A stretch of DNA of 63,801 nt, filler included, from Asterionella formosa (Eukaryota), in assembly GCA_002256025.1 (NCBI GenBank). It is 12 parts of 12 records of this genome, joined end to end, with 100 filler letters (N's around TTAATTAATTAA, not from the genome) between each part and the next. Parts side by side here need not be neighbours in the genome. Positions count along the whole stretch, not along the records: positions 62,342 to 63,801 come from NKIB01002349.1; 11 more parts are not named here. One strand, given 5' to 3'. A program made the position numbers and the translations under genes. Numbering within the stretch: the stretch's first letter is position 1; the number at the start of each line of letters is the position of its first letter. The notes under the pieces were generated by a model that searched no databases, was not told where the DNA came from, and saw only the letters and a program-made list of their open reading frames with translations. Shown here piece after piece: positions 57,660-63,801 of the stretch.

Positions 57660-59119
57660 GGATCGACGACACAGTATTCCTCGTCAGGAATGCATTCTTC
57701 TTCCTGCAAGTTAGTCTCAAAGAATCGTCCAGACTTGGCGTCGTAAGCGATTTCTCTCGTTCCGCACGTAATGGTGATCTTTTCGTTGCTTCCTTCTTCG
57801 GCCATTAAAAGTGGACCAGCAACACGACCAGCTGTTGTCGTTGTCTTCCTTAAAGTTCGATGATCTTAAATTCATTTACCGGTACTGTCCCGCTGTAGTA
57901 GCAGCAGTCATAGACATGTGAGTTCCCCACTTTCCAGATCGACGACACAGTATTCCTCGTCAGGACCACTTTCGTTTTTGCTTGATTCCTATGGGGAAAG
58001 ATGGAAGTAAGATTTTATTTACTCATAAATAGTTACTAACAAAATGGTTATTTGTTTTTAATCAAGTACAGCCATTTGCAAATAACCGGACGCTGGTGTC
58101 GTTTCTTTTGCTCCATCGACCGAGTCGGACAGAAGTGTCATGTTTATGTCAGTTCTTGTCACATCTCTTTGTTCCAACTCCTCTTATTCGAAACCGTTTG
58201 ATACGGCGGGATAAAACCTTCCTCGCTGTTTCCCAAGTCCAATGGTACCACCAGAATGCAGCAAAGTTTTCTTCCCATTCATGATCCTTGGGACTTCGTC
58301 ATGTTGTGGCGTTCTACCCCCTGCTCCATAACCACAGCCACCCTGTCGCGGGCCGTTGCAAAGCACGATAATGGGTGATGTACCAAATTTTTCCGGTATA
58401 ATAGAGGAGGGGGGGGGCAGCGCTTTGACTTTCACAGCCTCTCTAAAGAGCTGCGACAGAAAATAATAGGGAAAAACATAGTACCACTATAACCGTACAT
58501 CGCAGCCTCTAAAGAGCTGCGACAGAAAATAATAGGGAAAAACATAGTACCACTATAACCGTACATCGCAGCCTCTACAGAGCTGCGACAGAAAATAATA
58601 GGGAAAAACATAGTACCACCATAACCGTAGGTGCTACTTAAAGGTGCTGATAAAAGATGTAGATGTACTACCTGGTACCGGTAGTAACTCGTCAGCCTGG
58701 CTAATTATCACGCCAGTTAAATTCATAAAAGCAAGGAATCTACCTTATGAACATTACCTTACTCCGGGTAGTAGTGTTCGGAGAAATATGATGCAGTTTG
58801 AAGGAGAAATAGAAGAGATCTAACCGTAACACATATACCTAGCTGTTAGTAAATGATAACTAATTTCGTATCTATGAAACAATGCATTTGCAGAGGATGT
58901 TATTTCTATATATCTCCAACGTCTGCGCGTCCTGCCAATATCTACTCATTACCTCAATCATTTCGACTGGTGGCATCGAGTAAAACATTTGCGAGAACGA
59001 ATGGATCGATGGGATATTGATCACAAACAGGAAGAAACATTCATGACAACCATGTCAGATCCGTTCCATTGCAAATCTTCCTTCAATAGGTCAAACTCAT
59101 CATCCTTGAGCATTTGCCT
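57660..59119 (-). pseudogene. PGRL1: Scrambled fragments of a PGRL1 (PGR5-like 1) gene
   Basis: 59119-59039 encodes RQMLKDDEFDLLKEDLQWNGSDMVVMN, resembling the PGRL1 core as I recall it (MSNEEFDNLKEELMWEGSSVV); ~57865-57660 encodes a transit-like stretch plus ...CIPDEEYCVVD; ~57964-57910 is a second PDEEYCVVDLESGEL copy ending in a stop. Confidence 0.6.
58441..58629 (+). repeat. 66-bp tandem repeat x2.9
   Basis: Units start at 58441, 58507 and 58573; 2 substitutions in the third unit; no spacers. Confidence 0.95.
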
Positions 59120-61748: not shown

Positions 61749-62241
61749 CTAACCAGCACATGTCGAGCTTTTTTTACAGGAACTGCTGCAGGTGCAAATC
61801 AGTGGTGGGCAAACAGCTATTCCTTCTGAAGGTGCAATACTACATGCTTCTGTTGGAACTGTGCCTGTAAAATTGTTTATTCCAAGAGATAATACAGCTG
61901 CCAAGAAAGTGAAATATTAGCACAAACATTCAAGAAATATAAATTTAGGCTCAAATAACTCACTCAATGCAGACACGAGACCAATTTCTGAGGGAATTAT
62001 ACCAGTAAACTTATTTTTCCCAATATAAAACTCTATGGCATTTGTTAAATGGCCAATTTCTGATGGAAGTGCACCAGTCAACTGGTTTTCGTCTACATAG
62101 AAAATTGTTAGATTTGTCAAATATCCAATCTCTGTAGGAAGTGTGCCATTGAAATCATTGGAATTTGCTTCAAAATCTGTGAGAATTGTCAAATATCCAA
62201 TCTCTGTAGGAATAGTACCAGTGAAGTTATTATAGCTGACA
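61749..62241 (-). CDS. C-terminal part of a leucine-rich-repeat protein (plant-specific-type LRR); exons 62241-61964 and 61897-61749
   Basis: NxFxGTLPTEIGxLT repeats; intron 61963-61898 (GTGAGT...CAG) leads in frame to VLSLGINNFTGTVPTEAC...ICTCSSSC. Confidence 0.85.
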
Positions 62242-62441
62242 NNNNNNNNNNNNNNNNNNNNNNNNNNNNNNNNNNNNNNNNNNNNTTAATTAATTAANNN
62301 NNNNNNNNNNNNNNNNNNNNNNNNNNNNNNNNNNNNNNNNNTCATGGAATACTTTCTATTGTATTGTAGTTCACAGCTCCTAATACTCACGTATCATTTC
62401 GTATCATCTATCCCATACAAATACTCGCTACTGTTGAAAAG

Positions 62442-63801
62442 ACCAAGGAACGACGAAACGCCAGAAACTAAATGATGAGCAGGACGTTGCCTCCTTTATG
62501 GTACCCTCAACCATGATGTCGATAACAATGAATGTTTGGTTCCAGTTGTTTCTAGGACACACAGCACAAACGCCCTTTAAAGTTACTTTAAAGAAGAATG
62601 ATGACATTGCTGACTTGATGGATGCCGTGAAGATTAAATGTGGTGACAATCTTCAAGGTGTTTCCTCAGCGCAGCTCCGTGTGTATCCACCTGGAACTCA
62701 AGTGCCGGTTCCTGAGGGAACTAATGATCCAACCTTGGATCCTGGTCTGGTTGTTCATCTGAATTGGGGAGCTAGCAGCAAGAATGCGTTCGTGATTGTT
62801 GCACCTGATATTGGTACGTATTTTGATCTCATGGAATACCTTCTATTGTATTGTTGTTCACAGCTCCTAATACTCACGTATCATTTCGTATCATCTATCC
62901 CATACAAATACTCGCTACTGTTGAAAAGACCAAGGAACGACGAAACGCCAGAAACGAAATGATGAGCAGGAGGAAGTCTCCTTAATGGTACCCACAACCA
63001 TCATGTCGACAACAATGAAGGTTTGGTTCCAGTTGTTCCGTGGAAACGCAGGACTATTGCCAGTTTATGTCACGTCGAAGAAGAATGATGTCATTGCTGA
63101 CTTGATGAAAGCTGTGAAGATTGAATGTGGTGACAATCTTCAAGGTGTTTCCTCAGCGCAGCTCCGTGTGTATCCACCTGGAACTCAAGTGCCGGTTCCT
63201 GAGGGAACTAATGATCCAACCTTGGATCCTGGTCTGGTTGTTCATCTGAATTGGGGAGCTAGCAGCAAGAATGCGTTCGTGATTGTTGCACCTGATATTG
63301 GTACGTATTTTGATCTCATGGAATACTTTCTATTGTATTGTAGTTCACAGCTCCTAATACTCACGTATCATTTCGTATCATCTATCCCATACAAATACCT
63401 CGCTACTGTTGAAAAGACCAAGGAGCGACGAAACGCCAGAATCTAAATGATAAGCACGTCTTACGAGGGCTACTAGGTGGGAAGCTCAACGATTATTTCA
63501 CGCGCTTGGAGAAGGATCAGGAAGAGCGAATTTTTGAAGAGACAATGCATATCTATACCATTGATCGAAACCAGCTTCCTTACGATGATTCTTTACCTTC
63601 TTCTGATCAAAATTTTTCCGTTTTTTCCCACCAAGATAGTTATTGGATGAATGGTCTCCAAAAAGTGCGGTTTGATGATTGTAAGAGTCGGGGAATCTTA
63701 TATCGCCCTAAAATTGTGAAGGATATGACGAAAGCGGTTGAATATGCCTTCGAAAAAGGTGGTCCAACTGGAATCATGATTAAGGGACCGCATGGAATCG
63801 G
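62442..63801 (+). CDS. Crinkler (CRN)-like protein with tandem ubiquitin-like header exons and the start of a P-loop NTPase; exons 62442-62813, 62929-63300 and 63417->63801; partial at both ends
   Basis: ~487-bp unit starting at 62342, 62829 and 63316. Header VWFQL...IADLMDAVKIKC..LQGVSSAQLRVY...LDPG...FVIVAP. Phase-1 introns 62814-62928 and 63301-63416 (GTACGT...AAAG) fuse all exons in frame. The last exon is open to GIMIKGPHGIG at the window edge. Confidence 0.75.

Follow-up and report, generated by a model that had tools for sequence, protein, structure and literature searches.

How does a gene come to carry the same coding exon several times over, and do the copies end up side by side in one protein? 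This question is raised by a separate 1460-bp contig of the Asterionella formosa genome assembly GCA_002256025.1 (NKIB01002349.1), which fills positions 62342-63801 of the 63,801-nucleotide stretch of joined contigs analysed here (the window) and which both starts and ends inside a gene. Exons encoding a ubiquitin-like "header" of the Crinkler type precede an exon that leads into a P-loop NTPase, an arrangement of the Crinkler/RHS (CR) class. The explanation that we favour, with a probability of roughly 80%, is that the header exon of a CR gene became a stackable cassette through tandem duplication, and that some of the resulting mRNAs encode several headers.

Gene anatomy and domain identities

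Tandem Repeats Finder places a repeat at 62342-63456 with a period of 487 bp (2.3 copies, 93% matches, 0% indels, score 1962). Repeat units 1 and 2 align without indels and are identical at 453 of 487 bases, with 32 of the 34 differences falling within 62442-62662, a segment that holds a linker, a former leader and header codons 1-45. Across these 45 codons the two headers share 112 of 135 bases; across the remainder they share 151 of 151. The 100 bases ahead of unit 1 match the intron tail of unit 2 at 98 positions. Three stop-to-stop open reading frames (ORFs) are present, at 62438-62962 (174 aa), 62925-63446 (173 aa) and 63413-63799, the last being open at its 3′ end. The initial annotation, made from the sequence alone, had described a tandem 487-bp cassette with the intron tail of a third unit, two separate ORFs, and headers that differ in their N-terminal third and then agree; each of these features is found, together with the additional third ORF. 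Every exon junction of the contig is in phase 1, the codon being split after its first base, and each cassette translates as DQGTTKRQK..., with KRQK as a putative nuclear localisation signal (NLS), followed by a header that closes in ...APDI. In cassette exon 1 the breakpoint between linker and leader falls immediately before GGTACCC. The coordinates are collected in Table 1.

Table 1. Features of the Crinkler-like gene and of the spacer that precedes its contig (window positions).
Feature	Position	Strand	Basis or remark
3′ intron part, ending in the acceptor GAAAAG, of another header unit upstream (a third or more)	62342..62441	+	sequence match and RNA depth
Cassette exon 1, whole, 372 nt	62442-62813	+	sequence reading
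Linker of cassette exon 1 (DQGTTKRQKLNDEQDVASF), derived from the initial 58 nt of the NTPase exon	62442..62499	+	alignment to exon-2 linkers of L005 and P0002 and to first exons
Leader-derived part of cassette exon 1 (first-exon 5′ leader, read in frame as MVPSTMMSIT)	62500..62527	+	homologous to sequence upstream of the ATG in L003-L011
Cassette exon 1, header 1 (MNVWFQLF...FVIVAPDI), ending at the first base of the split codon, donor G/GTACGT	62528..62813	+	
Intron, 115 nt, GTACGT..GAAAAG	62814..62928	+	sequence and RNA depth
Cassette exon 2, 372 nt	62929..63300	+	linker 62929-62986, former leader 62987-63014
Header 2 (MKVWFQLFRGNAGLLPVYVTS...)	63015-63300	+	within cassette exon 2
Intron, 116 nt, GTACGT..GAAAAG	63301..63416	+	sequence and GT..AG joints in RNA runs only
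Start of the large exon, which the contig end truncates: linker DQGATKRQNLND..., N-terminal NTPase region and first half of Walker A (GIMIKGPHGIG)	63417..63801	+	
Artificial spacer, N run, TTAATTAATTAA, N run	62242..62341	.	marks the true left contig end, outside the gene

A full HMMER search with cassette 1 returned 58 proteins at E<=0.001. Among these, P0035, P0049 and P0057, which matched the header in multiple stretches, were bacterial repeat proteins on inspection; they were judged spurious by eye and removed. An alignment (A1) of 44 of the 58 matches, short and mainly header, with the two window headers has the consensus M..VWxQL..G....I.DL..AVK.K....L....L.VYPPGT.VP...LDPG....LIVVAP. 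When its members were scanned singly against Pfam, PF20147 (Crinkler N-terminal domain) was the sole family found, in 20 of 46 sequences at E<=0.01 (best 3.7e-07). Two relatives exceed the PF20147 cut-off of 24.6 bits, namely P0016 with 47.6 bits over two stretches and P0046 with 29.6 bits, and the window header retrieves them at E values of 4.1e-09 and 9.7e-05, respectively. AlphaFold2 run on A1 (46 sequences) gave a model with mean pLDDT 83.6, pTM 0.75 and the element order beta-beta-alpha-beta...beta. The leading Foldseek matches of this model in the PDB are all ubiquitin-family structures (ISG15, Parkin ubiquitin-like domain, ubiquitin, hHR23B ubiquitin-like domain, NEDD8), with probability 1.0 and TM 0.5-0.6, seven of them at E<=0.001.

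Judged over its relatives and by its predicted fold, the header is a Crinkler-type ubiquitin-like (beta-grasp) domain. The Crinkler assignment of the initial annotation thus holds for the family, the window's own copies scoring below the cut-off, and the ubiquitin-like fold that it had put forward for checking is recovered in the model. The PF20147 matches and the ubiquitin fold together accord with the view, in the available text of PMC5289972, that the N-termini of Crinkler (CRN) proteins are ubiquitin-like "header" domains. A C-terminal Gly-Gly was found in none of the header copies, which end in ...VIVAPDI or ...VIQPDI (one in ...VIVAPGI) and continue with DQG. First exons open with M(K/N)VWFQLF, so the header is N-terminal and the NTPase module lies downstream.

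The translation of the last exon retrieves P0001 (596 aa, 98% identity), which continues GPHGIGKSHSLVNLV and reads GPHGIGKSHS. Read and contig ends past 63798 run on as ...GIGKSHSLVNLV (GKSHSLVNLV) in all four sequencing runs examined. The GK[ST] to be expected after GPHGIG if the exon encodes a P-loop NTPase, as had been proposed, is therefore present both in P0001 and in the reads. P0001 has 81 relatives at E<=0.001, and the 54 near-full-length ones, fragments excluded, were aligned (A2). G89, G94, G99 and S101 of Walker A and D189 of Walker B are invariant in the 54 sequences, and K100 is kept in at least 90%. A catalytic Glu or Asp is usual after the Walker B aspartate; in at least 90% of A2 members this residue is instead Gln (FDQ), a sequence that may indicate slow hydrolysis or switch-like NTP binding.

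P0001 lies under the gathering score of every Pfam NTPase family, with 24.5 bits for AAA_22 (cut-off 27), 17.6 for AAA_16 (32.6) and 16.4 for NACHT (26.7). Across A2 the matches at E<=0.1, all of them sub-threshold, are to AAA_16 (49/54), AAA_22 (42/54), nSTAND_NTPase5 (35/54), ATPase_2 (22/54) and NACHT (21/54). An AlphaFold2 model of the 596-aa P0001 (pLDDT 82.3) shows an NTPase fold with a helical and winged-helix extension, and matches mitoribosomal DAP3 proteins as well as NLR, CED-4, Apaf and Cdc6/Orc chains. By sequence motifs and modelled fold, the last exon leads into a P-loop NTPase resembling STAND and Orc/Cdc6-type ATPases, as the initial annotation had supposed for the P-loop. In PADLOC, none of four NTPase proteins was matched at E<=0.01.

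The C-terminal domain that follows is modelled with a helix at 430-447 and strands at 493-497, 507-511 and 514-520, then a further helix and strand. Its conserved residues lie in RGRxFE (E438), FPAID (D506) and QVH (Q519, H521), without a canonical ExK. ESM-Atlas scores, which are leads and not tests, place the C-terminal 197 residues nearest to clusters of eukaryotic "hypothetical proteins". Oomycota are the commonest source at 0.96 and at 0.93 (821 members), Euglenozoa at 0.93-0.95, and one Euglenozoa cluster carries PF07999 (RHSP) on 14% of its members; Mrr_cat and DUF234 appear as weak leads at 0.76. By sequence, then, the domain resembles the tails of oomycete CRN and trypanosome RHS proteins. 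It is probably a PD-(D/E)xK-type nuclease, a reasonable analogy because the architecture of known CR proteins, as far as the available text of PMC5289972 describes it, combines an NTPase with a restriction endonuclease-like (REase) domain.

Origin of the cassette exon

Metagenome contigs were scanned with cassette 2, the 12 loci obtained were mapped by tblastn, and the 96 nt upstream of each header start were aligned. Six internal units were compared: two in the window, two in L001 and one each in L002 and L003. All six start at the acceptor TGTTGAAAAG/ACCAAGG, continue for 58 nt like the start of the NTPase exon (cf. L005, P0002), and then switch at CTTAAT/GGTACCC to the sequence found directly upstream of the ATG in first exons. 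True first exons for the leader comparison were L003 unit 1, L004, L005, L006, L010 and L011. The switch from linker to leader at one breakpoint in 6/6 internal units is the mark of a tandem duplication, whose copied segment starts 28 nt before the ATG in exon 1 and stops 58 nt inside exon 2. Each internal exon thereby combines the exon-2 acceptor with the exon-1 donor, and its phase symmetry needs no further cause. The exon shuffling invoked by the initial annotation thus gives way to a simple tandem segmental duplication with mapped breakpoints, in which no foreign exons take part and shared phase follows of itself.

The duplication does not by itself guarantee that linker and leader join in an open frame, yet the join is in frame and open in all six internal units. 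At six loci the first exon is of type A, with an in-frame TAG that precedes the ATG by 9 nt and occurs in 0/6 internal units; type-B first exons (L007-L009) have the open sequence ATGTCAACAACAATG (MSTTMKVW), as internal units do. The idea that the TAG was mutated to open the frame was dropped, since an origin of the internal units from a type-B-like leader accounts for the open frame just as well; the type-B leader being open already, the frame may simply be inherited. In two internal headers ATA replaces the former start ATG.

Complete cassette exons are multiples of three in 5/5 cases (372, 372, 375, 375 and 381 nt), and the eight introns measure 115-125 nt, with lengths differing by 1 or 10 nt. 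Neither stops nor frameshifts were found in any of 11 header copies, at synonymous divergence (dS) of up to 0.4. Purifying selection on the extra headers was considered and is not supported, the ratio of nonsynonymous to synonymous divergence (dN/dS) being not clearly below 1. The header copies are mosaics: three segments (codons ~9-21, 38-47 and 70-90) each come in variants that are combined differently from copy to copy, a pattern to be expected after recombination or gene conversion.

These observations fit the following course. The contig holds the 5′ part of a CR gene from a eukaryotic freshwater alga, most likely a diatom. The basic gene has two coding exons separated by a phase-1 intron of ~115 nt. 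Exon 1 consists of a short leader and a header of ~95 aa ending in ...IVAPDI, and exon 2 of a basic linker (DQGxTKRQK...), a STAND/Orc-Cdc6/archaeal-ATPase-type NTPase with winged-helix, and a CRN/RHS-like C-terminal domain of ~190 aa. A 487-bp tandem duplication then gave rise to an internal exon in which linker, former leader and header are joined, open and a multiple of three. Repeated rounds yielded arrays of cassette exons, recombination or gene conversion between units turned these into mosaics, and splicing gives at least some mRNAs with several tandem headers before one NTPase module.

Transcripts, copy number and alternative explanations

Twenty of 24 listed sequencing runs contain the stretch or part of it, and eight of the 20 are RNA libraries, mostly lake or freshwater metatranscriptomes. 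The RNA runs X2 (polyA), X7 and X9 and the DNA-like run X1 were examined, all as contigs; depth figures are sums over contigs and are not readable as copy number. In the three RNA runs intron depth was 10 to 1000 times lower than exon depth, while X1 was flat. In X2, intron bins had summed depths of 38-286 and exon bins of 8,500-70,000, except for 62734-62782 (508) and the end bin of exon 2. Depth in this run was 38-39 across 62342-62441 against ~32,000 from 62440 on, and 77-286 in the intron 62814-62928 against thousands in the flanking exons. GT..AG joints 62812->63416 and 63299->63416 (cut +1) were found in X2, X7 and X9, and none in X1. An X2 RNA contig matches 62928-63039 with 0 mismatches at depth 3236; since it begins at the cassette-2 acceptor and spans the duplication junction, cassette 2 is present in RNA and its acceptor is apparently in use. 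Read ends at 62990 carry the first-exon leader as in L003. Splicing at the predicted sites, which the initial annotation had read from the sequence, is thus reflected in a drop of intron depth and in GT..AG joints confined to the RNA runs.

A protein that reads through both junctions exists in the database. P0188 (376 aa) is one open frame that runs header...VIQPDI, DQGATKRQKQNDEQKEASLMVPTTIMSTTM, KVWFQLF...header...VIQPDI, DQGATKRQK...NTPase...GIGKSHS. Both of its module junctions fall exactly at the predicted splice points, and the linker/leader junction of the duplication lies inside the ORF. P0002 and P0003 have a single header that begins at MKVWFQLF and passes straight into linker and NTPase. 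Cylindrotheca fusiformis has proteins with one (P0186), two (P0016) and three (P0187) headers, and in Nitzschia sp. Nitz4 the 858-aa protein P0046 places two headers ahead of a P-loop-like region. Because repeats within one protein are closer to each other than to those of other species, these duplications are lineage-specific. In P0146 and P0147 the header (68% identical) is joined after ...FVIIAP to an unrelated C-terminus with several PG-rich repeats of ~45 aa (PGQEFQIYAGGRIVRIRCP), for which Pfam gives only a weak TOBE_3 match; these two proteins are evidence of shuffling between header and C-terminus, a modularity typical of Crinklers. A photosynthetic host, as had been assumed, would be suggested by the named diatom relatives only, not by the contig at 62342-63801.

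Copy-number variation, also claimed at the outset, is seen between independent contigs with one, at least two or at least three header units. In L005 and L006 one header is followed by the NTPase exon, and in L002 at least two; in L003 a first exon and the region ahead of it are followed by one cassette; and L001, cut at both ends, has three consecutive headers (at least three). L007-L010 (L007:656-2832) show the end of an NTPase gene and, ~500 bp later, the header of the next gene, in head-to-tail gene arrays. Among viral contigs, 253 pattern matches were obtained and none was confirmed by tblastn.

Three side observations concern this family. At L005:880-900 the acceptor region of the single-header gene reads GAAAAAAAACCAAGG, without the AG used elsewhere, which may mean a displaced splice site or a defective copy. 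Further downstream, L005:3124-4457 holds a second NTPase-type coding region that matches P0001 in three pieces in different frames, and is probably a degraded or intron-containing paralogue. In X1, 3831 contig pieces match the 1460 bases at >=90% identity; 1583 of these reach >=99%, and 2056 fit two places. Very many variants of the family or of its 487-bp unit are present in this sample.

Several results weigh against the stackable-cassette reading or soften parts of it. The runs consist of mixed-community contigs, and depth in them is no gauge of expression at the locus. The abundant joints have shorter sides of 19-26 letters, which are flagged as unreliable in metagenomes, and they are ambiguous between headers 1 and 2 and between exon 3 and the cassette linker: identical sequence precedes both donors and the linkers are alike, so none of these joints can be assigned to one header. 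A header-to-header joint at the locus occurs only at depth 3.8 in X2 and 3.43 in X9, and is not among the main joints. An X9 contig (62384-62468) crosses the first acceptor unspliced at depth 846. P0188, a paralogue that shares 73-79% identity over the headers and 57% where the NTPase begins, could stem from an intronless genomic copy rather than from mRNA. Comparisons of the 11 header copies give dN/dS values of 0.42-4.2, most of them within 0.5-1.1. As for the domains, header 1 scores 17.4-18.1 bits on PF20147 (E 0.0046-0.0075), under the cut-off, and header 2 alone gave no match in the Pfam scan. Most full-length NTPase relatives in the database begin without a header; gene callers may have missed an upstream exon in these, or they may be truly header-less forms. 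For the nuclease assignment, Pfam at E<=0.1 found no family in the C-terminal domain of any of the 54 members, and the fold searches with the 596-aa model were filled by the NTPase, residues after ~404 being barely covered.

Might the array supply header diversity rather than multiplicity? In a variable-first-exon or alternative-cassette arrangement each protein would carry one header, either because the unit has its own start site or because the other cassettes are skipped. The symmetric phase of all cassettes means that skipping keeps the frame, and the units differ mainly in a ~220-nt patch that covers the first 45 codons of the header. Single-header ORFs exist in P0002 and P0003, but single-header genes such as L005 and L006 explain these. 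The joint 62812->63416, which would skip cassette 2, is found at high depth in X2 and X9; it is, however, inseparable from 63299->63416, since all 151 of 151 bases before the two donors agree, and with identical header 3′ ends exon skipping looks the same as normal splicing. As for separate start sites, the exon-2 acceptor is retained in the cassettes and coincides with a steep rise of RNA depth, which fits splicing from an upstream exon and not a start site; the duplicated segment brings 28 nt of leader only, hence no promoter; and two internal headers have ATA for ATG. With two or three headers present in P0188, P0016, P0187 and P0046, we consider an array that serves single-header proteins quite unlikely.

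The extra headers might instead be decaying duplicates, neutral by-products of unequal crossing-over that are spliced through inherited sites and add nothing to function. Head-to-tail arrays such as L007-L010 favour unequal exchange, open frame and symmetric phase largely follow from the mode of duplication, and most of the dN/dS values given above fit neutrality. Set against this, none of the 11 copies has acquired a stop or frameshift at the divergence reached, exon lengths differ by multiples of three only while intron lengths differ by 1 and 10 nt, and the same architecture arose separately in other diatom lineages (P0046, P0016, P0187); functionless decay is very improbable on this evidence. 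The tandem could also be an assembly artefact, a mis-join or collapse of alleles or paralogues in a fragmented short-contig assembly, as a contig of only 1460 bp with both ends inside the gene, drawn from a family as repetitive as X1 shows it to be, might suggest. The same order of header, intron and linker plus header nevertheless recurs, with different unit sequences, in three other assemblies (L001 with three units, L002 and L003). None of the metagenome contigs is identical to the window; at 82-98% identity they represent independent loci or strains and argue against mis-assembly. The linker/leader junction is, moreover, bridged by the exact RNA contig and lies inside the P0188 ORF. An artefact is accordingly the least credible explanation and can be given hardly any weight.

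The data show the gene anatomy, the breakpoints, the identities of header and NTPase, splicing, differences in header number between loci and ORFs with several headers. If the header exon is a stackable cassette, as we favour, the headers may act as trafficking or interaction modules, and the protein may have nuclease activity and a role in conflict, as toxin, defence or selfish element. A bolder extension, which we regard as unlikely though worth stating, is that the header array is a programmable addressing module that arose repeatedly in diatoms. Alternative inclusion of its phase-symmetric cassettes would then equip one NTPase-nuclease warhead with varying numbers and combinations of headers and so tune its destination or recognition. 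Were this so, polymorphic toxins with their domain shuffling would have a eukaryotic counterpart based on splicing, with hypervariable mosaic N-terminal thirds kept diverse by recombination.

The window (1-63801) joins 13 contigs end to end with 100-nt spacers between them, 11 such spacers having been counted, and its last ten contigs measure 1460-1468 bp each, with G+C from 0.36 to 0.57. Because the window consists of joined contigs, genes across spacers are unlinked and possibly from different organisms. On the minus strand at 61917-62241, an open frame with leucine-rich repeats of plant or stramenopile style (NNFTGTIPTEIGYLTNLT) runs into the spacer; this gene lies on the preceding contig and so is unrelated to the Crinkler-like gene. 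Another small contig has a 66-bp tandem repeat at 58441-58629 (2.9 copies, 98% matches). An Rfam scan of the whole window gave no match at gathering score.

Comparison with known systems

The CR class, its ubiquitin-like header and its NTPase module are known. Tandem Crinkler headers or diatom Crinklers were not found described in the literature searched, which did not extend to Zhang et al. 2016, and the boundary intron, the mapped duplication mechanism and the recurrent arrays of one to at least three headers in diatoms were not found in print. The accessible part of bioRxiv 10.1101/2025.10.10.681168 deals with oomycete Crinklers, not diatom ones. Most of what is known about Crinkler/RHS-type proteins concerns effectors of plant-pathogenic oomycetes. 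Here they form a large expressed family in diatom-like algae, which appears strongly represented in lake metatranscriptomes. Proteins with one, two or three headers in at least three diatom lineages offer a natural series for header function (trafficking, stability, partner binding), and the locus is a worked example of how an intron-spanning tandem duplication yields a symmetric in-frame exon.

Oomycete CRN proteins are the closest comparison. In the available text of PMC5289972 they are described, after Zhang et al. 2016, as having a PF20147 header followed by NTPase, helix-turn-helix (HTH) and REase C-termini, and an HVLVVVP motif marks both the end of the N-terminus and a recombination hot spot. 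As in CRN proteins, the ubiquitin-like header of the present family stands directly after the start codon, with PF20147 as the sole Pfam family, and closes at the module boundary in a hydrophobic FVIVAP strand comparable by eye to the HVLVVVP of that text. The C-terminal module likewise starts with a P-loop NTPase, and the nearest Atlas clusters of its tail are commonest in Oomycota. The family is large, variable and recombining, and its header also occurs on another C-terminus (P0146/P0147). Unlike CRN proteins, its nearest named relatives are diatoms and not pathogens, LxLFLAK is absent and LRVYPPG stands at that place (by eye only), and one to at least three headers are encoded as tandem cassette exons, the window copy lying under the Pfam cut-off. 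A further difference is the intron exactly at the boundary of header and C-terminus, which coincides with the recombination hot spot described for oomycete CRN proteins in the part of PMC5289972 available.

RHS proteins are, in the same text, the "R" of CR proteins. The present family shares with trypanosomatid RHS (PF07999) its C-terminal Atlas clusters (Euglenozoa, 0.93-0.95) and its multicopy arrays, but has a different N-terminal region and no direct Pfam match to PF07999. From archaeal and bacterial ATPase_2 proteins (PF01637; PDB 2qen, 2fna; often followed by DUF234) it is set apart by sub-cut-off scores and by being eukaryotic, intron-containing and headed by a ubiquitin-like domain. 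Tandem ubiquitin-like proteins such as polyubiquitin, ISG15 and FAT10 also have several beta-grasp domains head to tail, and ISG15 is the first Foldseek match of the header. The headers differ from these in lacking a C-terminal Gly-Gly (they end in APDI), in their 29-aa basic linkers and in an identity to ubiquitin of 8-22%, and nothing suggests that they are conjugated.

Protocadherin and UGT1A are clustered variable-exon loci in which diverged 5′ exons precede a shared constant coding sequence. The present gene resembles them in its tandem array of similar but diverged 5′ exons ahead of shared constant coding sequence. It departs from them in that its units, which lack promoters of their own, each carry both an acceptor and a donor and so behave as cassette exons to be strung together.

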